Below, piece after piece: positions 1 to 45,589 of a DNA stretch of 64,000 nucleotides. The stretch spans positions 5,270,001 to 5,334,000 of the forward strand of contig OY740790.1 of assembly GCA_963514005.1 (NCBI GenBank), written 5' to 3'. How positions within the stretch are numbered: the first letter of the stretch is position 1; every line of letters starts with the position of its first letter. This stretch comes from Raja brachyura. Lineage: Eukaryota. A model generated the notes under the pieces. It was not told the origin of the DNA, ran no database searches, and was given only the letters and a program-made list of their open reading frames with translations. A program made the translations under genes and the position numbers.

Positions 1-194
1 GCAGGCCATTCGGCCCTTCGAGCCAGCACCACTATTCAATGTGATCATGGCTGATCATCCCCAATCAGTACCCCATTCCTGCCTTCTCCCCATATCCCCT
101 GACTCCGCTATTTTTAAGAGCCCGATCTAGCTCTCTCTTGAAAGCATCCGGAGAACCTGCCTCCACCGCCCTCTGAGGCAGACAATTCCACAGA
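1..194 (-). mobile_element. CR1 3' fragment (paralogs at 22351-22580 and 23809-24038)
   Basis: CR1 3'UTR; an (ACAATAG)n tail is present in the paralogs. Confidence 0.8.
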
Positions 195-199
195 CCAAT

Positions 200-1036
200 T
201 CAAGACGGTGATAACTGGAGAGCACTTTTCAAAAATCTACATAAAGACATCCCAATAAATAAAATAAACAAATTATTCTCATATCAAATAAAAACTCCAA
301 ACATTAGAAACAATATTTAAAGATTATCAAAATCCTCTTGATTTCCAAATTACTTTGGAAGAATTGACCATAAAAATAAAATCTCTCCATTCAAAGAAAG
401 CCTGTGGACCGGACAGCAATGAAATGAAAAGCTCAAGTACAGCACTCCGGTGATGTACGACATAGTGCATAGGCTGTTCAACATCTCACTACGTTCAGGT
501 TATTTCCCTGATATTTTGTGTCAAGGGTTTATTTCGCCCATTTATAAGAGTGGAAACAAATTAGACCCAAATAATTATCGTGGGAGCTGTGTCAATAGCT
601 GCCTAGGGAAGTTGTTCTGTAGTATCATAAATAACAGAATGCAGGATTTCCTTAACATATACAACATTCTCAGTAAAAATCAAATTGTCTTCCTCCCAAA
701 ACACCGTACCATTGACTAAATCTATGCGCTCCACACTCTCATTGAATAACATATACTCCAAGCAAAAAATGGTAAAATATTTACCTGGTTTATTGACTTT
801 GAGAAAGCATTTGACTCTATTTGGCACGAAGGGCTCTATTACAAACTTTTCTGTTGTGGTATAGGAGGAAAGGTATATGACCTTATCAAATCAATGTATG
901 TGAATAATAAATATGACGTTAAAATTGTGGAAAATGCACTGATCTCTTCGCCCAGAGAAGAGGCGTCCGGCAAGGCTGCAATCCGAGCCTGACACTGTTT
1001 AATGTATATATAAACGATTTCGCAGTAAAGTTGGAC
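200..1036 (+). mobile_element. Degenerate non-LTR retrotransposon RT fragment (paralog at 22585-23346)
   Basis: PIYKSGNKLDPNNYRG..SCLGKLF..NQIGF..FIDFEKAFDSIWH..RQGCNPS motifs, with stops. Confidence 0.8.
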
Positions 1037-1277: not shown

Positions 1278-1627
1278 AGAATAGCAAGTTTAGCAATTCA
1301 ATATTAATTTCTTAGTGTCAGTTAATGTCAATTAGTGTATGTGTGCATGTTGGTCATTCACGTTATGTATGACATGCTGTTACGTGTAGTGCACCAAGAT
1401 GTGCCGTATTTCCTTCACCAAGGATGTTTATATATATAAACAGGCCTTTCCGAGTGACTGACAAAAACAGCATATGATTGCATTGAATTAGTACTTTTGA
1501 TATTGTTGACATGATTGCACTGAATTAGTACTTGGGAGAGTCACCTATTTTGCAGAATATTATCTTAATAAAAGCTTCTTTGCTGACTTTGTCTCAAACA
1601 GCGTTTGTGATCTTTTAATATCTCACA
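1278..1627 (+). mobile_element. ERV 5' LTR (5' end in gap, distinct U3)
   Basis: TATA-like run at 1431-1440, AATAAA at 1567-1572, ends TCTCACA. Positions 1535-1627 match the other LTRs. Confidence 0.8.
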
Positions 1628-1630
1628 ATT

Positions 1631-1650
1631 TGGGGGCTCAGTTCCGGTAT
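1631..1650 (+). promoter_or_regulatory. Primer-binding site, tRNA-Pro-like
   Basis: TGGGGGCTCAGTTCCGGTAT, 3 nt after the LTR, compared with canonical TGGGGGCTCGTCCGGGAT. Confidence 0.75.
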
Positions 1651-1929
1651 TTAATTACTCTGGGCACCTGACGGAGGTACACGGACGAAGAGAAGGTGCA
1701 CCCCGCTGAGTTCAGCGGTCTCAGACTCCTTGCTTACCGTCAGAAGGTTTGAGCGAGTGATGGCCGGACCAAACAGAGAACTCAGCAAAGAAGTGAAGGT
1801 GGTTGGAGATTGGTTGGAAATCGCGAAAACTGAGTAATTCTGTGCACAGATCCCGGTTAGAAACTTTGACTATTATAGTATAACCTGGGCGATTTGATAA
1901 AAGATCGGAGAGGAATTCCGATCAAGATA

Positions 1930-3961
1930 ATGGGAAATGTAAGTGAAAAACCCAAAAGGGAGGGAAAAGGCCTAAAGACAAATTCCCGCATTCTGCCTAA
2001 TAGTCCGTTGGGGCGAATGCTGAACCACTGGGGGGCAGGAAATACCCAGGGGTTGGAGAAGACAACAATGATAAGGTATTGTTATTTTGAATGGGCAAAA
2101 CACCCGATAAAAGGAGCTTAGGTCTGGTGACGAGAGGATGGGTCAGATGAGGATTGGGTACAACAGCCATTGAATGAATATGTGAAAAATAAACCCAATC
2201 CAATAATAGAAGAGATCAAGTATGCCACAGTATGGGAACAGGGATGTAATCTGTTGAAATTAAAATAGGAGTCTGGAGAGTTAAATTCCTTATCACCCTC
2301 ATGGAATTTACAGGAGAACCTAGCTCCTCCCTATGGACATCCATCACCCAACGTAGCGCCGCCAATTCGACCCCCGCCTCCACTCGTGGCGACGGGAGTG
2401 GAAGAAGTGACACCTGGATCCGTTTTGATGGTAAAAAGAAAGGTCAGGGTGAAACAAGAATTTAATGATGATGTTACTGACGGTGATGACACCGACAGTG
2501 ACCTACCGGACCCCAGGAGTGAGAAAGAAAAGGGAATAAAGAGACAGGAGGCTGTCGTGGGAGATGAATTAAAACCCCCGTCACCAGGAGAGGGTGTCAG
2601 GAGGTCAGACAGAGTAAGAAGAAGATCGGTAAAAATTAGACCTCTAAGAGAGGTACCCATGGGAGGACCCAAGGGGGAATGAGGCCAGTTCATTGGCTAT
2701 ATTTAAGAGGGAGTTAGATGTAGCCCTTCTGGCTGACGGGAGAGAAGGAGAGAAGGCAGGTACGGGATACTGAGTTGGATGATCAGCCATGATCATATTG
2801 AATGGCGGTGCAGGCTCGAAGGGCCGAATGGCCTACTCCTGCACCTAATTTCTATGTTTCTATGTTTCTATGTTAATGTCCCCTTAACTAGTACTGAAGT
2901 GAGGAATTTCAAAAAGGAAATGAGAAGCCTCCTAGGGGATCCTTTATATCTGGCAGAACAATTAGATCAGTTCCTTGGGCCAAACACTTACACATGGGAG
3001 GAGTTAATGGCCATTATGGGGAATCTCTTCACATCCGAGGAGAGGCAAATGATTAGGGTAGCAGCAATGAGAAAGTGGGAACAGGAGAACCCACCAGGGC
3101 AGCAAAATATTAGATCCAGTCTCCAGGGGATGGCCTGGATGCATACAAGCGGTAGCAGCTACCGCAATATTGGTAGAAGAGAGTGGAAAATTAACCTTTG
3201 GAGGAGCTCTGGTTGTTTCTACGCCACACACGGTGAGAACCATACTCACTCAAAAATCCAACAGATGGTTAACAGGCTCTAGACTTTTAAAGTATGAGGC
3301 CATCCTGATGGAAAAAGACGATTTGACTATAATTACAGATAAGAACCTTAACCCATCCCAATTCCTGTATCCAGCAGAGAAACAGGGTGACGAGGAAGAG
3401 GACCCAGTACACTGCTGTAGTACAATAATAGATTTACAGACAAAGAGTAGAGAAGACTAAGAAGAGCAACCTCTGGCTGAGGGCAGCCGGTGGTTTATAG
3501 ATGGATCCTCCAGGTGCACAGATGGAAAAAGACATAGTGGGTACGGTATAGTGAACGGGGAAACTATGGAGGAAATTGAAAATGGCAGACTAGCTGGTAG
3601 TTGGTCAGGTCAATCTTGTGAATTATATGCATTAATGAGAGCTTTGGAACTATTGGAGGGGAAGGAAGGAACAGTGTATACCGATTCAAAATACGCTTTT
3701 GGAGCAGTACACACCTTTGGGAAAATCTGGAAAGAGCGAGGAATGATAACCACTCGAGGGAAAGAATTAGCACATGAGCAAATAGTAGGCCAGACACTGG
3801 AAGCCTTGCAAAAACCAGAACGAATAGCCATAGCACATGTGGCAAGGCTTCAGAAGGGTAACACCCTAGAGGCCAGAGAAAATAGGGCAGTGGATGAGGT
3901 TGCAAAAAGAGCAGCCACAGAACAGATGGTAGAAATGAAGTCACTAATACCTTTAAGGGGA
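1930..3961 (+). pseudogene. Deleted ERV gag-pol (MA, CA start, RT connection, RNase H)
   Basis: MGNVSEK..SPLGRMLNHW..MIRYCYFEW; NVPLTSTEVRNFKKEM..QFLGPNTYTWEEL; deletion near 3110 to LDPVSRGWPGCIQAVAATAIL; RNase H motifs WFIDGSS..SGQSCELYAL..VYTDSKYAFG. Contains stops. Confidence 0.9.
2682..2872 (+). mobile_element. CR1/HER1 LINE 3' end inserted in gag
   Basis: CR1 3'UTR (gggccgaatggcctactcctgcacc) plus (TTTCTATG)n tail interrupting the gag frame. Confidence 0.85.
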
Positions 3962-4403
3962 TGTGAGATATAAAAAAATCACAAATGCTGTTTGAGACAA
4001 AGTCAGCAAAGAAGCTTTTATTAAGATAATATTCTGCAGAATAGGTGCCTCTCCTTTGCTGTCCCCTAGAGGCACACCAAGGGTCAGGATGTATTCTATC
4101 TTTATACATTTCATTACATTATAGCCACACCCTCTTTTCTCACCATTTTGCCTGTTTTTAATTATAACATAAAGCCCACATTCCCACGAGAAAGTCCAGG
4201 AACGCCTCGGAACATCTCCTGACGTCAAAGGCTTATACTGAAGGTTCTATCTATTTGCTACTTTCTATCTCAAAGTTCTCTCTATCTGTCGTGACTTTCT
4301 ATCCCACTAACAGTCTGGCTTTGTTGAAACCTTATTTATTTCTAAGCTATATTTTTCTATTCCTAGTTTAAATCAACCATGTCTGTTAACCCCTTTTCTC
4401 ACA
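3962..4403 (-). mobile_element. ERV LTR 1 (442 bp)
   Basis: TGTGAGA...TCTCACA 7-bp terminal inverted repeats, preceded on the minus strand by a degenerate PPT AAAAAGAAAATGATGGAT. Confidence 0.9.
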
Positions 4404-4439: not shown

Positions 4440-6312
4440 TTACACTACATCCTCCTTTTCTAATGCTATCAACAGATTCTTCGCCTCCATATCCCCCTCT
4501 CGTTGGTCATAATGTGTTCTGAAAGCCATTATGGTGGCAGCGCTGTTCTTTGTCAGGGCTGTTTCTATCATTCGCTGGGCCAACCCCCGTACGCAGGGAA
4601 TGATACAGCATCCAAACAAACACAGTAACCCCACCATGACTACCACTGATGTTAGGGTTGATGTAAAGATGTGCTTCCATTTCCCAAACCAGGATTCTAG
4701 AAACCCAGTCCAGGAGGTGTCTACTCCAGAGTTCTCAGCCAATTCGATAGACAGAGAGGTGAGACCTGCTAGGGCTCTTGACACTGACCCATCCGGAGCA
4801 GTGTTGTTGGGGATGAATGTGCAACATTGTTCGCCAAACATTACATACACCCCTCCCTTCTCAGCCAGTAGCATGTCCAAGGCCATGCGATTTTGCCAGG
4901 TCATTTGGCTGGTAGCTGTCAGTTGTTCCGCTAATCCTTCAACTGCATCTCGAGTGTAATTTATAAAGCATTGTTGATTGTCGTAGAAGTAGTTGATCCA
5001 GTCCACATTTTTATTAATTGTGGGCCACCATAAGAGCATGGACTCAAAGCCTGCAGCTATCTGCTTTCTGGCTTTGAATTCATCGGGTACCCCTCTTGGC
5101 ACTCCTATCGCATCTATATAGATGTGTGTGTCAAATGATCCTTTCACCTTTCTCTTTTGTCGTCGGTTTCCTTCCTTGAGTTCTACAGCATGTTCTACTG
5201 CTATGGTAAAGGGCATCATCAGTTGTATGAGGGTACAGGTTCCCGTCCATGACCCTGGTAACCGGGGCCACAGGGTATTCTCCCCGCACCACCACCAGAC
5301 ATCAGCTCTACTGACTATCTGCTTTCTCAGCCAGGAGCTATTGAACAGTGGCCCCTGTTGAGCACCTTCCCCATGTCCTGTCCCTCTGGGTTATCTCTTG
5401 TATAGCACTCAAATCCCTCCTCCCCAAGAGGAATGGTAAATGGAGGAGGTCTAGGGTCTTCCCTTCGGCCCTTCGTATTATTGTTGCTGGTCGGAAATAG
5501 GTAATGATAACTCTGGCATATTGCATTCTTTGGTAAGGGGATTCATGAATAGCTGTAGTATACATGACATAGCCCCAGGTGTTCTATCCCAATTCAGAAA
5601 AAAATGGTACAGGGACCAGCTGAGGCCTGGCTCTGGCGCAGGCGTAACAATTGGTTTGTTGTATACTTCTAGCTGTGTACATCATCCAGGCTATCCAGGT
5701 GTTGGCTCCTGTTCCCCCTGTTGGTATTCCCTTCTCATATAACTGCCTTAATCACGTTTCTCCTGCTACTATCATTATCTTCAGATCCTTAGGCTCATTT
5801 TCCCTATTTACATTGCTGACTGCTGGTGGTGCTGGTGTTGCCCCGGGATCCCTATTCTGACTGTCATCTATCTTGACCACCTCTCCCTTCTCCTCATATC
5901 TTACCATCTCTCCATCCCACTTCACTTCTATCTCAAACTTCAGACATGCATCCTTCCTTGTTCTATCTGCACATATCCAATATCGACCACTTTCCTGCAT
6001 TTAAACACTCTGTGTGCTCACATATACGAGTCCTGGTAATTTCTCGTTTGGGTTTTGATACACTTTCCACCTATCAGTTTGATAGGTGGTCCGATGCCAC
6101 CCATATTTTGATGAAGTGAACACCGCGTGCCAATCTTTACAGGGATGGGTGCATACATACATTCTATAGCCGCACCACCATTTTCCTTTACATACATCAA
6201 ATGGGATGGTGGTGGACCTTCTATTCTGTGGTATTGTGATTTTTATGCATGTTACATTACTTACAAGCTGGGTGATTTCCCAACACACGACCCACCAACA
6301 TAAAATCTTCAT
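4440..6312 (-). pseudogene. env: ERV env, unit 1 (SU disrupted, TM frame open 4440-5219)
   Basis: Signal-like MKILCWWVVCW, NCYAC CxxC, RQKR furin site, ISD WQNRMALDMLLAEKGGV, Y-x6-CC (first Cys lost), hydrophobic anchor. Confidence 0.92.
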
Positions 6313-6646: not shown

Positions 6647-7435
6647 TCACTGCCCTCGCATTGTTGGAACTCCTTCTATCTTCCCTAAGTATGGGAGCCC
6701 AAATAACATCTCATATGGTGATATCCCTATGTCTTTTCGAGGTGCCGTTCGGATTCTTAACAAGGCTATCGGGAGGCACTTAGTCCAGAGGAGTCTTGTT
6801 TCCTCTATCAACTTGGTGATTTGGGTCTTCAAGGTGCTATTCATTCTTTCCACCTTTCCTGAGGTCTGGGGATGCCATTGTGTATGCAATTTCCATTCTA
6901 TTCCCAGTGCTTCACATATCATTTTATGTGTTTTGGAGGCAAAATGGGTCCCTCTATCCGAGTCGATTGTTTCCATAATCCCATATCTAGGTATAATTTG
7001 TTCTAGTAATATCTTGGCTACCGCCTGTGAGGTGGCAGTTGTCGTGGGGAATGCCTCTACCCACCTGGTGAAATGGTCCACTATCACTAACAGGTAATTC
7101 CAGGTTTTTACCTGGGGCAGCTCGGTGAAATCTATCTGTATTCTCTGGAAGGGCCTAACTGATAATGGTTGTCCTCCTCCTGGGACTGCTCTCATGATTT
7201 TTTTGTTAATTCGCTGACCTATTACACAGCCCCCTATGACTTGTCCGGCCATGGTATACATTCCACGGCAAGAGTAGGTTCTGAGGAGGGTGTCACAGAG
7301 GGCTTGTGTTCCCCAATGGCTTTGTCCATGCAACCTCCCTAATAATTCTCTCATTATTTCTTTGTTCAATAGCTGCTTTCCATCCAGTGTCCACCATTTC
7401 CCATTTGAAGTATGCTGAGCCCCCATTTCTCGCAT
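6647..7435 (-). pseudogene. pol: ERV integrase fragment, unit 1
   Basis: QIDFT..IDSDRGTHF..KVERMN DDE core. HHCC degenerate (CVIG); stop before the C-terminal domain. Confidence 0.92.
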
Positions 7436-8521
7436 GTGTTCCTGCTCTTTCTCACTAAAGATAGGTATCTTTTCCTATTGTCCCCTTAAAGGTATTAGTG
7501 ACTTCATTTCTACCATCTGTTCTGTGGCTGCTCTTATCTTTTTAAAGCAGTCTCATCAATTTATCCCTTTGTTCCCCACTTTAATCCTTTCTGATATGCC
7601 TTCTTTCTCATTCTAAACTCAATTTCTTACTTCTCAGATAGTTTACCCTCCTTTGCAAATGTATTCACCTTTCTTTTAAAATCTTCCACTGACTCCTCCT
7701 GATTTATTACATTCACACCTGTCGTTTCCTCCTTCTGTTACCTCCTCACTGCCTCTCTCTCCTTTCCTCTCTAAACTGCTTAAGTATATCTAATTGCTTT
7801 CCTCTCCCCTTTTCCCACCTTTCCAATTTATCTGTGACATATAATTTGTAATTTTCCAAATTAACTTTACTGAAAATAAATCTATAGAAACATAAGCAAA
7901 ACCAAGCAACCTTCATTTTCCAACTTTCCCCTTTTAAGTTGCAATGCGTTGTTCGTTACCTTACAGCTGTTCGTAACTTTCCTAATTGCTTACAATTTCT
8001 TAAAGGAACACACGCACACACCCTTACAGCATGTGGCCGACAACAAACAAAAGATCACATATATGAACTTTCTCATTCATTCAAAACCGGTTTTTACACA
8101 CAAATCACATTCGTTCCATTCTTACTTCAAAGAAATTATGCAATTTTCTACACAGATTCAAGTTTCAAAATTAACATTTATATAATTCTTATCTCCCCTT
8201 TTAAGTTAAAGTAGGATGGTCTAATCCCCCATCAATCAGGTTCCTGAGCGTTGTGATTGGATAGTGATTCACATCGTGATTAGTCAGACTCACCGTCACT
8301 CAAATTCTAACCACACCCCACTAAGATCACAACCATTCAAAATCCTAGTCACTCAACATCTGACCACACCCCACTCCCATTAATCTCCAAACAAAGAAGC
8401 TCATTTTGTCTCGATCTCTCAGCAGAGAGAATGCAGCAATTTTATCTCCACAGTCAAGAAACGCAGTCCTTACACCTCCTCTGTCCTCGTAGTCACTATA
8501 TTACATTATTCTTATTGCAAT

Positions 8522-8900
8522 TCTACTTTCTGCTATTCTACAATATTTTGCATCAACTCCTCATGTACCTGACCAATCTGTATATGAGTTCCTTCTATAG
8601 ATTTTATGAAACAACTCACAACAACAATATTTCTTTCAAGTGCTTAAGATGAGCTTCTTCAATTTCCTGACATTTCTTTGAGGTTTCTGTCAATTTTTGT
8701 TCAAAATCTGTTTTTCCACATATAATTTATAGTTTTCTGTAGCTTTTTTTTAGATGTGACAGTTCCCTTTTCTATTTATTTCTGTGTTGCTCCTTCCTTT
8801 TTAACTTTTCGTACTCAAAACATTTGGCACTGTGATTTTCCTTAGATTTTTGCAATGTTTGAGTGATACTCTGAATATTCTGTACAGCATCCAAAGTGCC
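8522..8900 (-). pseudogene. Captured FCHO2-like F-BAR domain fragment inside ERV unit 1
   Basis: Manual translation across frameshifts: [90 protein letters not shown]/..[18 protein letters not shown], colinear with the recalled vertebrate FCHO2 F-BAR C-terminal half. Confidence 0.88.
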
Positions 8901-9101
8901 CAATCCGCATTATTGGTTCCTTTGGTTAATCAAAATAACAGAACTTAATCATAGTCTCTTTATCTTTACCCCCGGGGCTTCCTTCTCCCCAAGATTGCCA
9001 CATTCGCCCCAATGGACTATCAGGCAGAATGTGCGGCTCTTCACCTTTGAGCCTTTTTCTTTCCCCCCCGGACTCTTACTTTTCCCGTTCCGGTTATCCA
9101 T
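8901..9101 (-). pseudogene. Second, divergent Gag matrix-like N-terminus, unit 1
   Basis: MDNRNGKSK../PHILPDSPLGRMWQSWGEGSPGGKDKETMIKFCYFD*PKEPI, paralogous to RILPNSPLGRMLNHW..KTTMIRYCYFEWAKHPI. Confidence 0.8.
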
Positions 9102-9254
9102 TGTCTTATCGGACTATTCCCGTCCGACAGAACCCTGACCTCTCAGGGTGGTATCCACAAGGAGTTAAACTGCCTCCATTGTCTTATCGGACTATTCCCG
9201 TCCAACAGACCCCTGACCTCTCAGGGTGGTATCCACGAGGAGTTAAACTGCCTC
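9097..9254. repeat. 78-bp tandem duplication containing hairpins (leader-like)
   Basis: Unit starts tccattgtcttatcggac at 9097 and 9175. Contains ccctga-cctc-tcaggg and tcgga-N9-tccga stems. Confidence 0.85.
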
Positions 9255-9274
9255 TCTCTCCTTTAATAATTATT

Positions 9275-9561
9275 TCCCGCTTCCCATACTGCGGCATACT
9301 TGATCTCTTCTATTATTGGATTGGGTTTATTCTTCACATTTTCATTCAATGCCTGTTGTACCCAATCCTCATCTGACTCATCCTCTGGCCACCAGACCGA
9401 AGCTCCTTTATCAGGTGTTTTGGCCATTCAAAATAACAATACCTTATCATTGTTGTCTTCTCCGACCCCTGGGTATTTCCTGCCCCCCAGTGGTTCAGCA
9501 TTCGCCCCCAACGGACTATTAGGCAGAATGCTGGGATGGGTTTTTCACTTACATTTCCCAT
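9275..9561 (-). pseudogene. gag: ERV gag matrix fragment, unit 1
   Basis: MGNVSEK..GRMLNHWGAGNTQGSEKTTMIRYCYFEWPK..EDESDEDWVQQALNE, frameshifted. Confidence 0.85.
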
Positions 9562-9840
9562 TATCTTGATCGGAATTCCTCTCCGATCTTTTATCAAATC
9601 GCCCAGGTAATACTATAATAGTCAAAGTTTCTTACCGGGGTCTGTGCACAGAATTACTCGATTTTCGCGATTTCCAACCAATCTCCAACCACCTTCACTT
9701 CTTTGCTGAGTCTCTGTTTGGTCCGGCCATCACTCGCTCAAACCTTCTGACGGTAAGCAAGGAGTCTGAGACCGCTGAACTCAGCGGGGTGCACCTTCTC
9801 TTCGTCCGTGTACCCCCGTCAGCTGGCCTGGAGTAATTAA

Positions 9841-9860
9841 ATCCCGGAACCGAGCCCCCA
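9841..9860 (-). promoter_or_regulatory. PBS, tRNA-Pro-like (also at 15795-15814 and 21749-21768)
   Basis: TGGGGGCTCGGTTCCGGGAT immediately after the LTR. Confidence 0.8.
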
Positions 9861-9863
9861 AAT

Positions 9864-10352
9864 TGTGAGATATAAACAAATCTCAAACGCTGTTTGAGAC
9901 AAAGTCAGCAAAGAAGCTTTTATTAAGATAATATTCTGCAGAATAGTTGCCTCTCCTTTGCTGCCCCCTAGAGGCACCCCGAGGGTCGGGATGTATTCTA
10001 TCTTTATACATTTCATTACATTATAGCCACACCCTCTTTTCTCACCATTTTGCCTCTATTTAATTATAACATAAAGCCCACATTCCCACGAGAAAGTCCA
10101 GGAACGCCTCGGAACATCTCTTGACGTCAAAGGCTTATACTGAAGTTTCTATCTATTTGCTACTTTTTATCTCAAAGTTCTCTCTGTGCTCTGTTCTATC
10201 TGTCGTTACTTTCTATCTCAAAGTTCTCTCTATCTGTCGTGACTTTCTATCCCACTAACAGTCTGGCTTTGTTGAAACCTTATTTCTTTCTAAGCTACAT
10301 TTTTTCTATTCCTAGTTTAAATCAACCATGTCTGTTAACCCCTTTTCTCACA
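9864..10352 (-). mobile_element. ERV LTR 2 (489 bp), shared between units 1 and 2
   Basis: TGTGAGA..TCTCACA, with a PBS on one side and PPT/env on the other. Confidence 0.9.
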
Positions 10353-13300: not shown

Positions 13301-15817
13301 TCTCTCATTATTTCTTTGTTCAATAGCTGCTTTCCATCCAGTGTCCACCATTTCCCATTTGAAGTATGCTGAGCCCCCATTTCTCGCATGTGTTCCTGCT
13401 CTTTCTCACTAAAGATAGGTATCTTTTCCTATTGTCCCCTTAAAGGTATTAGTGACTTCATTTCTACCATCTGTTCTGTGGCTGCTCTTATCTTTTTAAA
13501 GCAGTCTCATCAATTTATCCCTTTGTTCCCCACTTTAATCCTTTCTGATATGCCTTCTTTCTCATTCTAAACTCAATTTCTTACTTCTCAGATAGTTTAC
13601 CCTCCTTTGCAAATGTATTCACCTTTCTTTTAAAATCTTCCACTGACTCCTCCTGATTTATTACATTCACACCTGTCGTTTCCTCCTTCTGTTACCTCCT
13701 CACTGCCTCTCTCTCCTTTCCTCTCTAAACTGCTTAAGTATATCTAATTGCTTTCCTCTCCCCTTTTCCCACCTTTCCAATTTATCTGTGACATATAATT
13801 TGTAATTTTCCAAATTAACTTTACTGAAAATAAATCTATAGAAACATAAGCAAAACCAAGCAACCTTCATTTTCCAACTTTCCCCTTTTAAGTTGCAATG
13901 CGTTGTTCGTTACCTTACAGCTGTTCGTAACTTTCCTAATTGCTTACAATTTCTTAAAGGAACACACGCACACACCCTTACAGCATGTGGCCGACAACAA
14001 ACAAAAGATCACATATATGAACTTTCTCATTCATTCAAAACCGGTTTTTACACACAAATCACATTCGTTCCATTCTTACTTCAAAGAAATTATGCAATTT
14101 TCTACACAGATTCAAGTTTCAAAATTAACATTTATATAATTCTTATCTCCCCTTTTAAGTTAAAGTAGGATGGTCTAATCCCCCATCAATCAGGTTCCTG
14201 AGCGTTGTGATTGGATAGTGATTCACATCGTGATTAGTCAGACTCACCGTCACTCAAATTCTAACCACACCCCACTAAGATCACAACCATTCAAAATCCT
14301 AGTCACTCAACATCTGACCACACCCCACTCCCATTAATCTCCAAACAAAGAAGCTCATTTTGTCTCGATCTCTCAGCAGAGAGAATGCAGCAATTTTATC
14401 TCCACAGTCAAGAAACGCAGTCCTTACACCTCCTCTGTCCTCGTAGTCACTATATTACATTATTCTTATTGCAATTCTACTTTCTGCTATTCTACAATAT
14501 TTTGCATCAACTCCTCATGTACCTGACCAATCTGTATATGAGTTCCTTCTATAGATTTTATGAAACAACTCACAACAACAATATTTCTTTCAAGTGCTTA
14601 AGATGAGCTTCTTCAATTTCCTGACATTTCTTTGAGGTTTCTGTCAATTTTTGTTCAAAATCTGTTTTTCCACATATAATTTATAGTTTTCTGTAGCTTT
14701 TTTTTAGATGTGACAGTTCCCTTTTCTATTTATTTCTGTGTTGCTCCTTCCTTTTTAACTTTTCGTACTCAAAACATTTGGCACTGTGATTTTCCTTAGA
14801 TTTTTGCAATGTTTGAGTGATACTCTGAATATTCTGTACAGCATCCAAAGTGCCCAATCCGCATTATTGGTTCCTTTGGTTAATCAAAATAACAGAACTT
14901 AATCATAGTCTCTTTATCTTTACCCCCGGGGCTTCCTTCTCCCCAAGATTGCCACATTCGCCCCAATGGACTATCAGGCAGAATGTGCGGCTCTTCACCT
15001 TTGAGCCTTTTTCTTTCCCCCCCGGACTCTTACTTTTCCCGTTCCGGTTATCCATTGTCTTATCGGACTATTCCCGTCCGACAGAACCCTGACCTCTCAG
15101 GGTGGTATCCACAAGGAGTTAAACTGCCTCCATTGTCTTATCGGACTATTCCCGTCCAACAGACCCCTGACCTCTCAGGGTGGTATCCACGAGGAGTTAA
15201 ACTGCCTCTCTCTCCTTTAATAATTATTTCCCGCTTCCCATACTGCGGCATACTTGATCTCTTCTATTATTGGATTGGGTTTATTCTTCACATTTTCATT
15301 CAATGCCTGTTGTACCCAATCCTCATCTGACTCATCCTCTGGCCACCAGACCGAAGCTCCTTTATCAGGTGTTTTGGCCATTCAAAATAACAATACCTTA
15401 TCATTGTTGTCTTCTCCGACCCCTGGGTATTTCCTGCCCCCCAGTGGTTCAGCATTCGCCCCCAACGGACTATTAGGCAGAATGCTGGGATGGGTTTTTC
15501 ACTTACATTTCCCATTATCTTGATCGGAATTCCTCTCCGATCTTTTATCAAATCGCCCAGGTAATACTATAATAGTCAAAGTTTCTTACCGGGGTCTGTG
15601 CACAGAATTACTCGATTTTCGCGATTTCCAACCAATCTCCAACCACCTTCACTTCTTTGCTGAGTCTCTGTTTGGTCCGGCCATCACTCGCTCAAACCTT
15701 CTGACGGTAAGCAAGGAGTCTGAGACCGCTGAACTCAGCGGGGTGCACCTTCTCTTCGTCCGTGTACCCCCGTCAGCTGGCCTGGAGTAATTAAATCCCG
15801 GAACCGAGCCCCCAAAT
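10353..15817 (-). mobile_element. ERV internal region, unit 2 (env 10390-12266, IN 12601-13389, MA fragments)
   Basis: Copy of unit 1 at offset ~5954; the ORF track repeats. env TM is frameshifted near 10695. Confidence 0.92.
14476..14854 (-). pseudogene. FCHO2-like F-BAR fragment, unit 2
   Basis: Same sequence as 8522-8900 at +5954. Confidence 0.88.
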
Positions 15818-16306
15818 TGTGAGATATAAACAAATCTCAAACGCTGTTTGAGACAAAGTCAGCAAAGAAGCTTTTATTAAGATAATATTCTGCTGAATAG
15901 GTGCCTCTCCTTTGCTGCCCCCTAGAGGCACCCCGAGGGTCGGGATGTATTCTATCTTTATACATTTCATTACATTATAGCCACACCCTCTTTTCTCACC
16001 ATTTTGCCTCTATTTAATTATAACATAAAGCCCACATTCCCACGAGAAAGTCCAGGAACGCCTCGGAACATCTCTTGACGTCAAAGGCTTATACTGAAGT
16101 TTCTATCTATTTGCTACTTTTTATCTCAAAGTTCTCTCTGTGCTCTGTTCTATCTGTCGTTACTTTCTATCTCAAAGTTCTCTCTATCTGTCGTGACTTT
16201 CTATCCCACTAACAGTCTGGCTTTGTTGAAACCTTATTTCTTTCTAAGCTACATTTTTTCTATTCCTAGTTTAAATCAACCATGTCTGTTAACCCCTTTT
16301 CTCACA
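15818..16306 (-). mobile_element. ERV LTR 3, shared between units 2 and 3
   Basis: Copy of LTR 2 at +5954 with a few substitutions. Confidence 0.9.
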
Positions 16307-19300: not shown

Positions 19301-21771
19301 ACCATTTCCCATTTGAAGTATGCTGAGCCCTCATTTCTCGCATGTGTTCCTGCTCTTTCTCACTAAAGATAGGTATCTTTTCCTATTGTCCCCTTAAAGG
19401 TATTAGTGACTTCATTTCTACCATCTGTTCTGTGGCTGCTCTTATCTTTTTAAAGCAGTCTCATCAATTTATCCCTTTGTTCCCCACTTTAATCCTTTCT
19501 GATATGCCTTCTTTCTCATTCTAAACTCAATTTCTTACTTCTCAGATAGTTTACCCTCCTTTGCAAATGTATTCACCTTTCTTTTAAAATCTTCCACTGA
19601 CTCCTCCTGATTTATTACATTCACACCTGTCGTTTCCTCCTTCTGTTACCTCCTCACTGCCTCTCTCTCCTTTCCTCTCTAAACTGCTTAAGTATATCTA
19701 ATTGCTTTCCTCTCCCCTTTTCCCACCTTTCCAATTTATCTGTGACATATAATTTGTAATTTTCCAAATTAACTTTACTGAAAATAAATCTATAGAAACA
19801 TAAGCAAAACCAAGCAACCTTCATTTTCCAACTTTCCCCTTTTAAGTTGCAATGCGTTGTTCGTTACCTTACAGCTGTTCGTAACTTTCCTAATTGCTTA
19901 CAATTTCTTAAAGGAACACACGCACACACCCTTACAGCATGTGGCCGACAACAAACAAAAGATCACATATATGAACTTTCTCATTCATTCAAAACCGGTT
20001 TTTACACACAAATCACATTCGTTCCATTCTTACTTCAAAGAAATTATGCAATTTTCTACACAGATTCAAGTTTCAAAATTAACATTTATATAATTCTTAT
20101 CTCCCCTTTTAAGTTAAAGTAGGATGGTCTAATCCCCCATCAATCAGGTTCCTGAGCGTTGTGATTGGATAGTGATTCACATCGTGATTAGTCAGACTCA
20201 CCGTCACTCAAATTCTAACCACACCCCACTAAGATCACAACCATTCAAAATCCTAGTCACTCAACATCTGACCACACCCCACTCCCATTAATCTCCAAAC
20301 AAAGAAGCTCATTTTGTCTCGATCTCTCAGCAGAGAGAATGCAGCAATTTTATCTCCACAGTCAAGAAACGCAGTCCTTACACCTCCTCTGTCCTCGTAG
20401 TCACTATATTACATTATTCTTATTGCAATTCTACTTTCTGCTATTCTACAATATTTTGCATCAACTCCTCATGTACCTGACCAATCTGTATATGAGTTCC
20501 TTCTATAGATTTTATGAAACAACTCACAACAACAATATTTCTTTCAAGTGCTTAAGATGAGCTTCTTCAATTTCCTGACATTTCTTTGAGGTTTCTGTCA
20601 ATTTTTGTTCAAAATCTGTTTTTCCACATATAATTTATAGTTTTCTGTAGCTTTTTTTTAGATGTGACAGTTCCCTTTTCTATTTATTTCTGTGTTGCTC
20701 CTTCCTTTTTAACTTTTCGTACTCAAAACATTTGGCACTGTGATTTTCCTTAGATTTTTGCAATGTTTGAGTGATACTCTGAATATTCTGTACAGCATCC
20801 AAAGTGCCCAATCCGCATTATTGGTTCCTTTGGTTAATCAAAATAACAGAACTTAATCATAGTCTCTTTATCTTTACCCCCGGGGCTTCCTTCTCCCCAA
20901 GATTGCCACATTCGCCCCAATGGACTATCAGGCAGAATGTGCGGCTCTTCACCTTTGAGCCTTTTTCTTTCCCCCCCGGACTCTTACTTTTCCCGTTCCG
21001 GTTATCCATTGTCTTATCGGACTATTCCCGTCCGACAGAACCCTGACCTCTCAGGGTGGTATCCACAAGGAGTTAAACTGCCTCCATTGTCTTATCGGAC
21101 TATTCCCGTCCAACAGACCCCTGACCTCTCAGGGTGGTATCCACGAGGAGTTAAACTGCCTCTCTCTCCTTTAATAATTATTTCCCGCTTCCCATACTGC
21201 GGCATACTTGATCTCTTCTATTATTGGATTGGGTTTATTCTTCACATTTTCATTCAATGCCTGTTGTACCCAATCCTCATCTGACTCATCCTCTGGCCAC
21301 CAGACCGAAGCTCCTTTATCGGGTGTTTTGGCCATTCAAAATAACAATACCTTATCATTGTTGTCTTCTCCGACCCCTGGGTATTTCCTGCCCCCCAGTG
21401 GTTCAGCATTCGCCCCCAACGGACTATTAGGCAGAATGCTGGGATGGGTTTTTCACTTACATTTCCCATTATCTTGATCGGAATTCCTCTCCGATCTTTT
21501 ATCAAATCGCCCAGGTAATACTATAATAGTCAAAGTTTCTTACCGGGGTCTGTGCACAGAATTACTCGATTTTCGCGATTTCCAACCAATCTCCAACCAC
21601 CTTCACTTCTTTGCTGAGTCTCTGTTTGGTCCGGCCATCACTCGCTCAAACCTTCTGACGGTAAGCAAGGAGTCTGAGACCGCTGAACTCAGCGGGGTGC
21701 ACCTTCTCTTCGTCCGTGTACCCCCGTCAGCTGGCCTGGAGTAATTAAATCCCGGAACCGAGCCCCCAAAT
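16307..21771 (-). mobile_element. ERV internal region, unit 3 (env 16344-18220, IN 18555-19343)
   Basis: Near-identical to unit 2 at +5954. Confidence 0.92.
20430..20808 (-). pseudogene. FCHO2-like F-BAR fragment, unit 3
   Basis: Same sequence as 8522-8900 at +11908. Confidence 0.88.
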
Positions 21772-22347
21772 TGTGAGATATAAAAAAATCACAAATGCTG
21801 TTTGAGACAAAGTCAGCAAAGAAGCTTTTATTAAGATAATATTCTGCAGAATAGTTGCCTCTCCTTTGCTGTCCCCTAGACATGGTTGATTTAAACTAGG
21901 AATAGAAAAAATGTAGCTTAGAAAGAAATAAGGTTTCAACAAAGCCAGACTGTTAGTGGGATAGAAAGTCACGACAGATAGAGAGAACTTTGAGATAGAA
22001 AGTAACGACAGATAGAACAGAGCACAGAGAGAACTTTGAGATAAAAAGTAGCAAATAGATAGAACCTTCAGTATAAGCCTTTGACGTCAGGAGATGTTCC
22101 GAGGTGTTCCTGGACTTTCTCGTGGGAATGTGGGCTTTATGTTATAATTAAAAAGAGGCAAAATGGTGAGAAAAGAGGGTGTGGCTATAATGTAATGAAA
22201 TGTATAAAGATAGAATACATCCCGACCCTCGGTGTGCCTCTAGGGGGCAGCAAAGGAGAGGCACCTATTCTGCAGAATATTATCTTAATAAAAGCTTCTT
22301 TGCTGACTTTGTCTCAAACAGCGTTTGTGATTTTTTTATATCTCACA
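21772..22347. mobile_element. Fold-back LTR: minus-strand LTR 3' end (21772-21880) joined to a near-complete plus-strand LTR (21878-22347)
   Basis: Junction gtcccct-AGA-catggttg; ~109-bp inverted arms. Confidence 0.85.
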
Positions 22348-23346
22348 ATTACAATAGACAATAGACAATAGACATTAGGTACAGGAGCAGGCCATTCGGC
22401 CCTTCGAGCCAGCACCGCTATTCAATGTGATCATGGTTGATCATCCCCAATCACTACCCCATTCCTGCCTTCTCCCCTTTTCCCCTGACTCCGCTATTTT
22501 TAAGAGCCCGATCTAGCTCTCTCTTGAAAGCATCCGGAGAACCTGCCTCCACCGCCCTCTGAGGCAGACAATTCCACAGACCAATTCAAGACAGTGATAA
22601 CTGGAGAGCACTTTTCAAAAATCTACATAAAGACATCCTAATAAATAATATAAATTTAAATTATTCTCATATCAAATAAAAACTCCAAACATTAGAAACA
22701 ATAATTAAAGATTATCAAAATCCTCTTGATTTCCAAATTACTTTGGAAGAATTGACCATAAAAATAAAATCTCTCCATTCAAAGAAAGCCAGCAATGAAA
22801 TGAAAAGCTCAAATACAGCATTCCGGTGATGTACAGCATAGGCTGTTCAACATCTCACTACGTTCAGGTTATTTCCCTGATATTTTGTGTCAAGGGTTTA
22901 TTTCGCCCATTTATAAGAGTGGAAACAAATTAGACCCAAATAATTATTGTGGGAGCTGTGTCAATAGCTGCCTAGGGAAGTTGTTCTGTAGTATCATAAA
23001 TAACAGAATGCAGGATTTCCTTAACATATACAACATTCTCAGTAAAAATCAAATTGGCTTCCTCCCAAAACACCGTACCACTGACTAAATCTATGCGCTC
23101 CACACTCTCATTGAATAACATATACTCCAAGCAAAAAAATGGAAAAATATTTGCCTGGTTTATTGACTTTGAGAAAGCATTTGGCACGAAGGGCTCTATT
23201 ACAAACTTCTCTGTTGTGGTATAGGAGGAAAGGTATATGACCTTATCAAATCAATGTATGTGAATAATAAATATGACATTAAAATTGTGGAAAATGCACT
23301 GATCTGTTCGCCCAGAGAAGAGGTCCGGCAAGGCTGCAATCCGAGC

Positions 23347-23640: not shown

Positions 23641-24267
23641 GGCTATAATGTAATGAAATGTATAAAGATAGAATACATCCCGACCCTCGGTGTGCCTCTA
23701 GGGGGCAGCAAAGGAGAGGCACCTATTCTGCAGAATATTATCTTAATAAAAGCTTCTTTGCTGACTTTGTCTCAAACAGCGTTTGTGATTTTTTTATATC
23801 TCACAATTACAATAGACAATAGACAATAGACATTAGGTACAGGAGCAGGCCATTCGGCCCTTCGAGCCAGCACCGCTATTCAATGTGATCATGGTTGATC
23901 ATCCCCAATCACTACCCCATTCCTGCCTTCTCCCCTTTTCCCCTGACTCCGCTATTTTTAAGAGCCCGATCTAGCTCTCTCTTGAAAGCATCCGGAGAAC
24001 CTGCCTCCACCGCCCTCTGAGGCAGACAATTCCACAGACCAATTCAAGACAGTGATAACTGGAGAGCACTTTTCAAAAATCTACATAAAGACATCCTAAT
24101 AAATAATATAAATTTAAATTATTCTCATATCAAATAAAAACTCCAAACATTAGAAACAATAATTAAAGATTATCAAAATCCTCTTGATTTCCAAATTACT
24201 TTGGAAGAATTGACCATAAAAATAAAATCTCTCCATTCAAAGAAAGCCAGCAATGAAATGAAAAGCT
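23641..24267 (+). repeat. Duplicate of 22183-22809 (LTR 3' end + CR1 + LINE)
   Basis: Apparently identical at offset 1458. Confidence 0.85.
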
Positions 24268-40624: not shown

Positions 40625-41127
40625 CTGGTTGCATCATGGCCTGATTCGGCAACTTGAACGTCCAGGAGCAAAAATGACGACAAAAAGTTGTAACCACTGC
40701 CCAGTTCATCGCCGGCTTTGACCTCCGCACCGTCAAAGGGATCTATCATAGTCGCTGCCTCAAAAAGGCAGCCAAAATCATCAAGGACCCACACCATCCT
40801 GGCCACACACTCATCTCACCATTGCCATCAGGAAGAAGTTACAGGAGCCTGAAAACTGTAACGTTCAGGTACAGGAACAGCTTCTTCCCTGCAGCCATCA
40901 GGCTATTAAACACAATGAATAAGCTCTGAGCTCTGAACTGCAAAATACTATATTATTGTTTGTTATTTGCACTATTTGTTATTTATTGAACTTTTTCTTT
41001 TTTTCTCTTCCCCCATTATGCACTATGTTTACATATTCACATATTCTGTTGTGCTGCAGCAAGTAAGAATTTCATTGTCCCATCCGGGACATATGACTAT
41101 AAAACACTCTTGACTCTTCTTGACTCT
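40625..41127 (+). mobile_element. L2-clade LINE 3' fragment
   Basis: IIKDPHHPGHTLISPLPSGRSYRS; (GACTCTT)n tail. Confidence 0.8.
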
Positions 41128-41259
41128 AGTCCAGGCCTCTTGGTCATCACTCACTCACTCACACACTGCAACACCTGTCCTTCAGTGCTAAACTTGCCTG
41201 GCCCCTATTTTGTGACGGGGTAAAAGATGTGATCATTAGAGTAAATCCCAGCACGCTAC

Positions 41260-41577
41260 CTTGAAAGCTTTTCACTTCCCGGCTGATACTGGTGTTCGAG
41301 GGGGGATGAGACACTGTACAGCCAAAGACTGAGCCTTTTTTCCAATCCTCTGAACTCACAGTCAGGAAGTGGCTGGCACTGAAAGTCCCCCCCTGCTCCA
41401 GAGCAGTCGGTGAAGCGCTGGTGGTGGAGGAGATCGGGGCTCCGTCTTTCTCCCACGTGACGTTTATGAGGTCCGGGTAGAAACCAGAGAGCACACACTC
41501 GAGGGTGGCTGTGTGGCTACGCTTGGTCTCTTCATGAGCTGGAGGCAGCAGTCTGACCTTGGGGCTTTTTGTTTCAA
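41260..41577 (-). CDS. Extra CH4-like exon, pair C
   Basis: ttccag acceptor, 318 nt open, G|GTAGCG donor. Confidence 0.85.
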
Positions 41578-41619
41578 CTGGAACAGAGGAGCAAAGTAAA
41601 TGTGAGACCCTCTTCCTCA

Positions 41620-41923
41620 AGGGCCTGTCCCAATTACGCGATTTTTTTCGTCGAATGTTTTCAGCATGTTCAATATCCAGCGGCCACCAGAACTAGGTAC
41701 GACTCTTTGGGCAACTACTCATGACCATACAGGCTTCACCCCACAACATGTCGCCAGGGTGTCGCCTGTATGTTCGTGAGTAGTCTCCTCAGTCGCACAG
41801 AGTCGGAGTGTCTTTCTGGAATTTTCCAGAACTTTCAACATGTTGAATATTTTCGCTGACCTGCAAGGACCTATGACGGGTGCCGGCAGTCGCCAAAAAA
41901 GTTGTGTAAGTGGGACAGGCCCC
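41620..41923. mobile_element. PIF/Harbinger-like MITE (also at 43616-43912, 45632-45972, 54918-55258)
   Basis: TIR AGGGCCTGTCCCACTTACG...CGTAAGTGGGACAGGCCC; 3-bp TCA (or TAA/TTA) flanks. Confidence 0.75.
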
Positions 41924-41969
41924 TCATGGCAACTAATGTTGGCCATATCTTTGCCGATCTCTCGCCCAC

Positions 41970-42271
41970 CTTTGGACTTTCTGTCCGTGCTGACACTGGT
42001 GAGGATGATGGAGATCGTTGGGCAGAGCACACAACCTCCACCCCGCTGGTCCATTCCTCCACACTGCTCCGGAGTTTACTGCTCACTCTGTCTTGGGTCC
42101 TTTCTCCTCTCGGTTGGTGGGTCACAGCCCCTGTAGTTCTCTCCCTTCCGCTCACTTGCCAGTAGATTTGGACCTGGCTCAGATCAGCACCCATTACCAC
42201 GCACACCACAGTAGCGGTCTTGTTGATCCAAATCTCTTCAGTGGAGGGGTTTTGGATAAAGACAGACAATT
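41970..42271 (-). pseudogene. Extra CH3-like exon, pair C, with 1-nt deletion near the donor
   Basis: 302 nt. Reads AGTCCAAAG|GT versus AGTGCCAAAG|GT in pairs A and B, which changes the exit phase. Confidence 0.75.
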
Positions 42272-42379
42272 CTGCAGATGAGAAATAGGAAGCTTACAAA
42301 CCGGACAAGGTCTGGTGTTGTCGTCACCAATCAACGACTTGCATTCATTTTCCAGACTCACTTTATTGACGTGTGCACA

Positions 42380-43124
42380 AGGAACAACCTCTCTCTCAAT
42401 GTCAGCAATACTAAAGAGATGATTATGGACTACAGGAGACAGCAGGTGAGTGGACACCTCCCATCCACATCGGTGATGCTGAGGTTGAAAGGGTCAGCAG
42501 CTTCAAGTTCCTCAGTGCGCACATCACTGAGGACCTCTCCTGGACACTGCACACGGACACAATAACAAAGAGAGCCCGCCAGCGGCTCTTTTTCCTGAGA
42601 AGACTGAGCAAGTTTGGCATGAACGCCAGCATCCTCACAAACTTCTACAGATGCACCATCGAGAGCCTGCTGATGGGCTGCATCACAGTCTGGTACGGGA
42701 ACTGTTCTGCTCACAGCCGTAAATCACTACAGAGAGTGGTGAAGGCGGCACAGCACATCACTGGCAACTGTCTCCTGGCCATTCAGGACATTTTCCACTG
42801 GCGGTGCCTGCGGAAGGCACACAGCATCATCAAGGACCACAGCCACCCAGCTCACAGACTGTTCTCCTTGTTACCGTCAGGCAGACGATACAGGAGCATG
42901 GCTGCAAGTTCCACCAGACTTAAGAAAAGTTTTTACCATCAGGCTACTAGGCTAAATACTCTATCATTATTTGTTATTTGCACTATATTTGTTATTTAGT
43001 TAACATTCTTTCACTTCCCCCGTTATGCACTATGTTTACATATTCACATATTCTGTTGTGCTGCAGCAAGTAAGAATTTCCTTGTCCCGTCCAGGACATA
43101 TGACAATGAAACACTCTTGACTCT
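42380..43124 (+). mobile_element. L2-clade LINE fragment at the repeat junction (paralog at 44382-45140)
   Basis: NFYRCTIESLL.GCITVWYGNC..LPSGRRYRS. Confidence 0.85.
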
Positions 43125-43255
43125 AGTCTAGGCCTCTTGGTCATCACTCACTCACTCACACACTGCAACACCAGTCCTTCAGTGCTAAACTTGCCTGGCT
43201 CTAATTTGTGATGGGGTAAAAGATGTGATCATTAGAGTGAATCCCAGCACCGTAC

Positions 43256-43573
43256 CTTGAAAGCTTTTCACTTCCCGGCTGATACTGGTGTTCGAGGGGG
43301 GATGAGACACTGTACAGCCGAAGACTGAGCCTTTCTTCCAATCCTCTGAGCTCACAGTCAGGAAGTGGCTGGCACTGAAAGTCCCCCCCTGCTCCAGAGC
43401 AGTCGGTGTAGCGCTGGTGGTGGAGGAGATTGGGGCTCCGTCTTTCTCCCAAGTGACGTTTATGAGGTCCGGGTAGAAACCAGAGAGCACACACTCGAGG
43501 GTGGCTGTGTGGCTATGCTTGGTCTCTTCATGAGCTGGAGGCAGCAGTCTGACCTTGGGACTTTTTGTTTCAA
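43256..43573 (-). CDS. Extra CH4-like exon, pair B
   Basis: 318 nt open, canonical AG/GT, near-identical to pair A. Confidence 0.88.
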
Positions 43574-43958
43574 CTAGAACAGAGGAGTAAAGTAAATGTG
43601 AGACCCTCTTCCTCAAGGGTCTGTCCCACTTACGTGACTTTTTCGGCGACTGCCGGCACCCGTCATAGGTTGATACAGGTCGCCAAAAATTTTCAATGTG
43701 TTGAAAATCAGGCGGCGACCAGAACAAGGTGCGACATGTCGCCAGGGTGTCGCCTGTATGGTCGTGAGTGGTCTCCTCAGTCGCCAAAAGAGTCATAACA
43801 TCTTTCTGGTCACCGCTGGATTTTCAACATGTTGTAATTTTTCGCCGACCTGCAACGACCTATGACGGGTCCCGGCAGTCGCCGAAAAAGTCGCGTAAGT
43901 GGGACAGGCCCATCATGGTAACTAATGTTGGCCATATCATTGCCGATCTCTCGCCCAC

Positions 43959-44261
43959 CTTTGGCACTTTCTGTCCGTGCTGACACTGGTGAGGATGATG
44001 GAGATCGTTGGGCAGAGCACACAACCTCCACCCCGCTGGTCCATTCCTCCACACTGCTCCGGAGTTTACTGCTCACTCTGTCTTGGGTCTTCTCTCCTCT
44101 CGGTTGGTGGGTCACAGCCCCTGCAGTTCTCTCCCTGCCGCTCACTTGCCAGTAAATTTGGACCTGGCTCAGATCAGCACCCATTACCACGCACACCACA
44201 GTAGCGGTCTTGTTGATCCAAATCTCTTCAGTGGAGGGGTTTTGGATAAAGACAGACAATT
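43959..44261 (-). CDS. Extra CH3-like exon, pair B
   Basis: 303 nt open, canonical AG/GT, near-identical to pair A. Confidence 0.88.
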
Positions 44262-45271
44262 CTGCAGATGAGAAATAGGAAGCTTACAAACCGGACAAAG
44301 ACTGGTGTTGTCGTCACCGATTAACTGGACTCTGACAAATTGCATTCATTTTCCAGACTCACTTTACTAACGTGTGCACAAGGAACAACCTCTCTCTCTA
44401 TGTCAGCAAAACTAAAGAGATGATTGTGGACTACAGGAGACAGCAGGGGAGTGGACGCCTCCCATCCACATCGGTGATGCTGAGAGTGAAAGTGTCAGCA
44501 GCTTCAAGTTCCTCAGTGCGCACATCACTGAGGACCTCTCCTGGACACTGCACACGGACACAATAACAAAGAGAGCCCGCCAGCGGCTCTTTTTCCTGAG
44601 AAGACTGAGCAAGTTTGGCATGAACGCCAGCATCCTCACAAATGTCTACAGATGCACCATCGAGAGGCTGCTGACGGGCTGCATCACAGTCTGGTATGGG
44701 AACTGTTCTGCTCACAGCCGCAAATCACTACAGAGAGTGGTGAAGGCGGCACAGCTCATCACTGGCAACTGTGTCCTGGCCATTCAGGACATTTTCCACT
44801 GGCGGTGCCTGCGGAAGGCACACAGCATCATCAAGGACCACAGCCACCCAGCACACAGACTGTTCTCCTTGTTACCGTCAAGCAGACGATACAGGAGCAT
44901 TGCTGCAAGTACCACCAGACTTAAGACAGCTTTTACCATCAGGCCATCAGGCTAAATACACTATCATTATTTGTTATTTGCACTACATTTGTTATTTATT
45001 GAACTTTTTCTTTTTTTCTCTTACCCCGTTATGCACTATGTTAACATATTCACATATTCTGTTGTGCTGCAGCAAGTAAGAATGTCCTTGTCCCGTCCGG
45101 CACATATAACAATAAAACACTCTTGACTCTTCTGGACTCTAGTCTAGGCCTCTTGATTATCACTCACTCACTCACACACTGCAACACCTGTCCTTCAGTG
45201 CTAAACGTACCTGGCTCTATTTTGTGACGGGGTAAAAGATGTGATCATTAGAGTGAATCCCAGCACCGTAC

Positions 45272-45589
45272 CTTGAAAGCTTTTCACTTCCCGGCTGATA
45301 CTGGTGTTCGAGGGGGGATGAGACACTGTACAGCCGAAGACTGAGCCTTTCTTCCAATCCTCTGAACTCACAGTCAGGAAGTGGCTGGCACTGAAAGTCC
45401 CCCCCTGCTCCAGAGCAGTCGGTGTAGCGTTGGTGGTGGAGGAGATCGGGGCTCCGTCTTTCTCCCAAGTGACGTTTATGAGGTCCGGATAGAAACCAGA
45501 GAGCACACACTCGAGGGTGGCTGTGTTGCTATGCTTGGTCTCTTCATGAGCTGGAGGCAGCAGTCTGACCTTGGGACTTTTTGTTTCAA
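45272..45589 (-). CDS. Extra CH4-like exon, pair A
   Basis: ttctag acceptor, 318 nt open, G|GTACGG donor. VETKSPKVRLLPPAHEETK...LECVLSGFYPDLINVTW...FGCTVSHPPS. Confidence 0.88.

Follow-up and report, generated by a model that had tools for sequence, protein, structure and literature searches.

Each of three proviral units in a 64,000-nt stretch of the Raja brachyura genome (hereafter, the window) contains a short segment resembling FCHO2, a host gene for an F-BAR protein. This raises the questions of how host sequence came to lie within a retrovirus and whether the virus has used it as a protein. We examined the window, the host gene, and the sister copies elsewhere in the genome. The segment is best described as a non-coding FCHO2 remnant in a defective endogenous retrovirus (ERV), very probably gained when reverse transcriptase (RT) copied one turn of a co-packaged circular RNA (circRNA) consisting of exons 2–8.

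The FCHO2 remnant and its carrier in the window

A preliminary description had noted an FCHO2-like minus-strand translation with about four frameshifts and a stop, and both protein and DNA matches confirmed it. One 43-aa frame of the window piece matched residues 123–158 of PDB 2v0o (E = 2.7e-11), and tblastn with the skate FCHO2 protein as the query placed the piece at residues 120–240 (E = 1e-27). A 72-aa frame of a sister copy shared 94% identity with FCHO2 from Amblyraja and Leucoraja, its closest relatives. At the DNA level, the piece runs from nt 20 of host exon 5 through exons 6 and 7 into exon 8, of which it has the first ~34 nt, with 342 of 364 positions identical (94%). The host gene is located on G000:C3, and its exons 1–8 differ from Amblyraja/Leucoraja FCHO2 at 3 of 264 residues. 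Another F-BAR gene was ruled out as the donor, as the DNA is 94–97% identical to the C3 FCHO2 exons. The piece is interrupted by four clear indels that break the frame (near 8803, 8751, 8713, and 8620) and by a stop (near 8777). The match reported for the span 8522–8900 is real, but the homology stops near 8535, where the last ~10 nt align weakly, and not at 8522. Likewise, the sequence is that of the FCHO2 F-BAR domain, but only of its second half, with residues 1–119 missing. The segment lies between the primer-binding site and integrase and is free of introns, as previously described, and mapping onto the host exon junctions showed that exons 5–8 are fused at the host splice sites.

The FCHO2 piece is part of a 5,954-bp unit that is repeated three-fold with shared LTRs (Table 1). 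The unit contains two broken gag starts, the FCHO2 piece, a ~1-kb spacer, an RNase H end, integrase, and a gamma-type env. It lacks protease and RT, and the elements examined were likewise without RT. No Pfam match was obtained for the spacer (7540–8535, three sense frames) or the gag remnants. Judged by its gamma-type env, the Gag p30-like capsid (a weak Gag_p30 match, E = 0.006, in the + strand relative), and a primer-binding site that we take to be of the tRNA-Pro type, the carrier is a class I (gamma/epsilon-like) ERV.

Table 1. Features of the retroviral array and its neighborhood (positions in the window; Str., strand).
Feature	Position	Str.	Evidence
Lineage B relative with deletions, lacking FCHO2; remnants of gag p30 and RNase H	1535..3961	+	
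3′ LTR (TG...CA)	3962..4403	-	
Broken gamma-type env, 5′ end approximate	4440..6310	-	TLV_coat, E 5.5e-14, in 316-aa C-terminal frame
RNase H end and integrase, cut off by a stop	6647..7539	-	rve, E 4.6e-20
Stop-rich spacer replacing the rest of gag, protease, and RT	7540..8530	-	
Spliced FCHO2 remnant, residues ~120–241, non-coding; very probably the surviving 5′ half of a captured circle	8535..8899	-	Protein and DNA homology
Broken gag start of older lineage A, probably brought in with the FCHO2 piece	8900..9061	-	
78-bp direct duplication between the two gag remnants	9097..9254	-	
Broken gag start of younger lineage B	9255..9562	-	Homology to + strand relative and L179; no Pfam hit
Primer-binding site	9843..9863	-	
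LTR common to units 1 and 2	9864..10352	-	
FCHO2 remnant, second tandem copy	14489..14853	-	
LTR common to units 2 and 3	15818..16306	-	
FCHO2 remnant, third tandem copy	20443..20807	-	
Outermost 5′ LTR, U5 end only (109 bp)	21772..21880	-	
Near-complete LTR in inverted orientation at the end of the array; this end is rearranged and has lost the target duplication	21878..22347	+	

The internal parts of the three units differ at 2 to 24 of ~5460 nt, and an assembly artefact may lie behind such near-identical units. The same rearranged locus is present with one unit at C10:4.97 Mb, with two on C283, and with three in the window. These results indicate that the window's three copies are one integration that was later multiplied in tandem, and they rule out three independent integrations. 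The three copies described earlier do exist, as the tandem expansion of one integration rather than as separate captures or integrations.

The cut LTR and inverted LTR end (21772–22347) recurs at C10:4.97 Mb and on C283. At the other end, the 3′ LTR of the array abuts the + strand lineage B relative at the RNase H/integrase border. At window positions 1–1036 and upstream, and in L181–L188, a ~7.7-kb block (deleted ERV, integrase-env piece, LTR, and LINE) is tandemly repeated in the upstream direction, inside a segmental duplication present at three places. On the far side of the array, 22183–22809 and 23641–24267 are an exact 627-bp duplicate flanking an N run, perhaps an assembly overlap, and 40940–46444 is a tandem repeat of ~2-kb units with 91–94% identity.

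Exon order, junctions, and history of the sister copies

A genome DNA search with the insert gave 513 candidates, 40 of which were scored (identity 94–100%). All 30 loci fetched from that search carried the same insert in the same viral context, which rules out a processed pseudogene dropped into this one locus. Several searches pooled together placed the insert at no fewer than 105 distinct loci on 42 contigs, a lower bound. The earlier description had set a segment confined to a single locus, with a poly(A) tail and target duplications, against a capture; the insert proved to be family-wide and without poly(A), which argues for capture. Independent integrations are flanked by target duplications of 4 bp in an older lineage (A) and 5 bp in a younger one (B), and LTR pairs have diverged by 3.7–6.3% in lineage A (5 pairs) and 0.8–1.8% in lineage B (4 pairs).

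Comparison of the skate FCHO2 protein with the genome detected loci in which residues 119–267 are followed by residues 53–137. At the DNA level, the lineage A copies have the exon order 5 (part)-6-7-8-2-3-4-5 (start). The exon 8/exon 2 joint is exact at the splice sites; a 21-mer across it was found perfectly matched at 21 genomic places, and the reversed control at 0. Among 30 loci picked by their downstream viral flank, the joint was spanned in 25 and deleted in 4, and 1 was a fragment. It was readable by pattern in 23 of the 30, and all 23 had the exact back-splice length. The extra G expected from a jump on linear mRNA at a nearby CTGG homology was present in none of these 23. Exon 1, sequence from exon 9 onward, and a poly(A) tail were absent from the loci aligned. 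Exons 2–8 total 763 nt, which is not a multiple of 3. Starting at nt 20/21 of exon 5, the insert returns to nt 18 of that exon and so makes one turn with a gap of 1–2 nt. The window copies end before the exon 8/exon 2 joint, and the evidence for the joint comes from the sister copies. The joint was also found in contigs of two further organism labels, where it continues into the viral flank.

We looked for the viral site before insertion. One contig skips the whole FCHO2 insert (an empty site). Tight sequence patterns for this site had no match in the genome, and a looser pattern detected two loci, including provirus L180. L180 is 92% identical to lineage A from the LTR to the junction, and its gag runs on with no FCHO2; it is only 82% identical after the junction, which makes it a relative of the parent and not the parent itself. 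Compared with L180, the insert replaced ~5 viral bases. By plain count, the junction homology is 7 nt with one mismatch on the 3′ side and 1 nt on the 5′ side. The same 7-mer is equally well matched at four places on the circle, and the homology alone is therefore weak. The one-turn length is a strong sign of a circular donor.

In the host gene, introns 1 and 8 (38.8 and 18.1 kb), which flank exons 2–8, are the longest of the 16 examined. A strong inverted repeat ≤500 nt from both splice sites was present for 2 of 120 possible exon circles, with exon limits beyond exon 9 being approximate, and exons 2–8 are one of the two (154 bp, 76%). Inverted repeats are frequent in FCHO2: 55 of the 120 pairs of introns share one, and by best score the pair of introns 1 and 8 comes only 14th. 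The other proximal pair surrounds exons 6–16 (109 bp, 83%; exon 16 limit approximate) and predicts another possible circle. In the 200 kb of the host gene taken from the present assembly, exons 2–8 occur once, and genomic exon duplication therefore does not explain the joint in that assembly. Reads from a related skate contained the normal joints exon 1|2, 4|5, and 8|9. Neither the oligo-dT and single-cell reads of the related species (5% and 1% of runs) nor two contig sets contained the exon 8-to-2 circle, and the same reads and contigs gave no cover on the viral flanks; contig set X17 contained the mRNA form only. Oligo-dT and single-cell libraries are poorly suited to circRNA.

The lineage A provirus contains further host sequence. 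Its layout is LTR, primer site, gag start, exons 5-6-7-8-2-3-4-5, ~90 nt of gag, RRBP1, CCHCR1 3′ end, RNase H end, integrase, env start, and LTR. The spliced RRBP1 piece (L103:3535-4359 and L105:3530-4314) consists of ten exon pieces in order with ~90% amino-acid identity; a 96-nt alternative exon is skipped, there is one internal deletion (residues ~709–873), and one copy has a 257-codon open stretch. The last three exons of CCHCR1, whose host gene is on C1351, follow in spliced form with the 3′ UTR (L103:4488-4824 and L105:4465-5086) and are joined to the RNase H end. Both captures are colinear. The ~130 nt between them (L103:4360-4487) match neither host region fetched and are possibly a further exon or a fourth donor.

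The integrases of lineages A and B are only ~70–73% alike, and the two lineages share the gag start and the insert, which points to recombination between them. The gag start and insert of the window are ~82% identical to lineage A copies, and the gag at 8900–9061 is ~73% identical to the unit's own gag. In a tree built from the insert, lineage A forms a star next to the host, and lineage B is one branch (98/85) among truncated intermediates inside A. Members of group B were picked for their resemblance to the window, so that the single branch is in part a product of this selection, and the bootstrap values were not yet stable. The tree argues that all copies go back to one capture event. At three residues, the ERV copies keep the state of other skates and the host has changed; together with the joint in two further organism labels, this suggests that the capture predates this species. 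The stop-rich kilobase at 7540–8530 was assembled stepwise in lineage B and the intermediates.

Coding capacity and origin of the insert

We investigated whether the insert could encode a protein. Of 55 copies examined, 47 had a readable 5′ junction, and in every one of these an in-frame stop lies 5–23 codons upstream of the FCHO2 frame, with no ATG. The frame does not match that of gag, and the back-splice displaces it a second time. Frame-breaking indels were present in all 26 lineage A and 25 lineage B copies tested, and large deletions are common to many copies. The pN/pS values were 1.10 for A (222 versus 49), 0.86 for B (38 versus 10), and 0.71 for 12 intermediates (53 versus 17), leaving out the near-identical duplicates L132, L133, L141, L001, L002, and L004–L006 and the fragment L152. 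A complete F-BAR dimer unit of ~270 residues including the N-terminal FCH part is absent in any one frame, the fuller copies being permuted and frameshifted. The FCHO2 stretch in the window is a decayed, non-coding remnant with no working F-BAR domain; a functional domain was ruled out by the lack of an ATG, the upstream stops, the gag offset, the indels, and pN/pS values of about 1.

It may be argued that the present copies are decayed descendants of a captured F-BAR that was used as a protein, in budding or to disturb endocytosis, as the preliminary description proposed. The exon 5–8 part is kept throughout the family, two lineage A copies have 150–155 open codons across residues 119–267, with no start, and pN/pS for shared substitutions falls to 0.53 in B (7 versus 3) and 0.29 in the intermediates (5 versus 4), which are tiny counts. 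The corresponding value for lineage A is 0.88 with 5 stops, however, and the junction largely refutes this reading, as it cuts the domain in two, permutes it, and shifts the frame. With residues 1–119 missing, no start, a broken frame, and no purifying selection, we consider such a protein highly improbable. The intact reading frame looked for on this account did not appear in any copy examined, pN/pS was about 1, and the claim of a viral membrane-bending protein falls away. The identical exact exon 8/exon 2 joint would also arise from a linear RNA with repeated exons (from a lost tandem duplication of exons 2–8 or from trans-splicing) captured by two-switch LTR retroposition. The provirus acquired its RRBP1 and CCHCR1 pieces as colinear mRNA in the ordinary way, and the circle did not appear in the RNA of the relative, both of which suit a linear donor. 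We nevertheless regard it as unlikely: exons 2–8 are single-copy today, the long flanking introns with their proximal inverted repeat fit back-splicing, and nothing on a linear template would halt copying at one unit length within 1–2 nt, with 1 nt of exit homology. An integrated provirus could instead have received a DNA form of the circle, or a processed pseudogene made by a LINE, and then been amplified; entry and exit at one point of the circle also fit a single crossover with circular DNA, and the descent of all copies from one event agrees with this. The insert has neither poly(A) nor a target duplication, viral bases having been lost instead, and the two further mRNA captures in the same element point to events inside the virus particle. 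Entry as DNA is thus very unlikely in our estimation. In regards to the mRNA transduction by a class I retrovirus that had been proposed, the capture of spliced FCHO2 RNA stands, but the donor was most likely a circRNA and not an mRNA.

A circular donor suggests the following course. During minus-strand synthesis, RT would have switched onto a co-packaged FCHO2 circRNA (exons 2–8), with the nascent DNA pairing with exon 5 through the 7-nt stretch with one mismatch. Retroviral RNase H degrades copied RNA, and forced copy-choice is part of retroviral biology; RT entering a circle would therefore lose its template after one turn, as seen. RNase H would have stripped the RNA behind RT, which would have met the template end after one turn and returned to the viral RNA at a 1-nt homology. 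We infer both the co-packaging and the RNase H run-off. The insert would have broken gag, and spread would consequently need helper proteins. Recombination may then have carried the gag start and the first half of the circle into the younger lineage B, which amplified, and one B integration would have multiplied in tandem to give the copies in the window as the passenger decayed. We lean, by a little, toward regarding the insert as a base-resolved fossil of a retroviral circRNA write-in, comprising co-packaging, a microhomology switch, and RNase H run-off after one turn, and preserved in hundreds of copies.

Relation to known captures and consequences

Transducing retroviruses carry functional host genes, such as the v-onc genes and the rv-cyclin of WDSV. 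The skate element resembles them as host RNA in a defective class I retrovirus and differs in that the insert has no reading frame, gag fusion, or purifying selection. Closer parallels are found among circRNA-derived pseudogenes, a class recognized since 2016. Dong et al. 2016 (PMC4897178) described 33 high-confidence mouse circRFWD2 pseudogenes, the mechanism of which “remains mysterious”. These share with the skate copies a non-colinear exon junction in genomic DNA, the lack of poly(A), and a link to an ERV (there MMERVK10C-int), and further copies without the junction exist there as in the window (PMC4897178). Unlike the mammalian circRFWD2 copies, the insert in this cartilaginous fish is found at a single fixed position in gag, within proviruses that are complete from LTR to LTR. 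It also differs in that a relative with an empty site defines both junctions and reveals the single turn, in being chained with two mRNA captures, and in its probable later recombination into a second ERV lineage. In the skate, the two junctions survive together with the empty site and the one-turn length.

Template-switch capture of mRNA, including multi-gene chimeras, is treated in the accessible part of Tan et al. 2016 (PMC5131818), which cites human FAM8A1/HERV-K, maize Bs1, and the mouse multi-gene ‘Super’ retrocopy. As far as that part goes, the skate element resembles such LTR-mediated retrocopies in that partial spliced host RNA from several donor genes replaces internal viral genes, with short switch-point homologies and non-autonomous spread. 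It differs in that one donor was very probably back-spliced; ‘circ’ occurs 0 times in the main text of that source, as accessible. FCHO2 is a known circRNA-producing gene, according to the accessible part of PMC10838848, where human circFCHO2 hsa_circ_0002490 consists of exons 19–20, in contrast to exons 2–8 in the skate circle. The accessible text of two reviews contained nothing on mechanism beyond the suggestion of LTRs. The preliminary description had referred to amniote ERVs with an FCHO2 F-BAR capture; neither these nor a skate case appeared in the literature searched, which covered few subscription papers. The capture in a cartilaginous fish that it had raised was found, as four spliced host exons inside a class I ERV of a skate.

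If the one-turn model is correct, it supplies the missing mechanism for ERV-linked circRNA pseudogenes and, within the literature searched, the first such case outside mammals. It would also mean that skate germ-line cells made the FCHO2 exon 2–8 circle before several skate species split and that ERVs can serve as an archive of circRNA isoforms in non-model vertebrates. The model makes a precise prediction for purified RT and for the mouse circRFWD2 copies. More speculatively, the copies may feed small RNAs reaching FCHO2, RRBP1, and CCHCR1 transcripts.

In skate data, such copies will produce spurious back-splice calls and spurious matches to FCHO2, RRBP1, and CCHCR1. The proviral copies L037, L039, L045, and L051 account for 4 of the 16 Pfam FCH hits in the genome; these are not host genes and are a trap for annotation.
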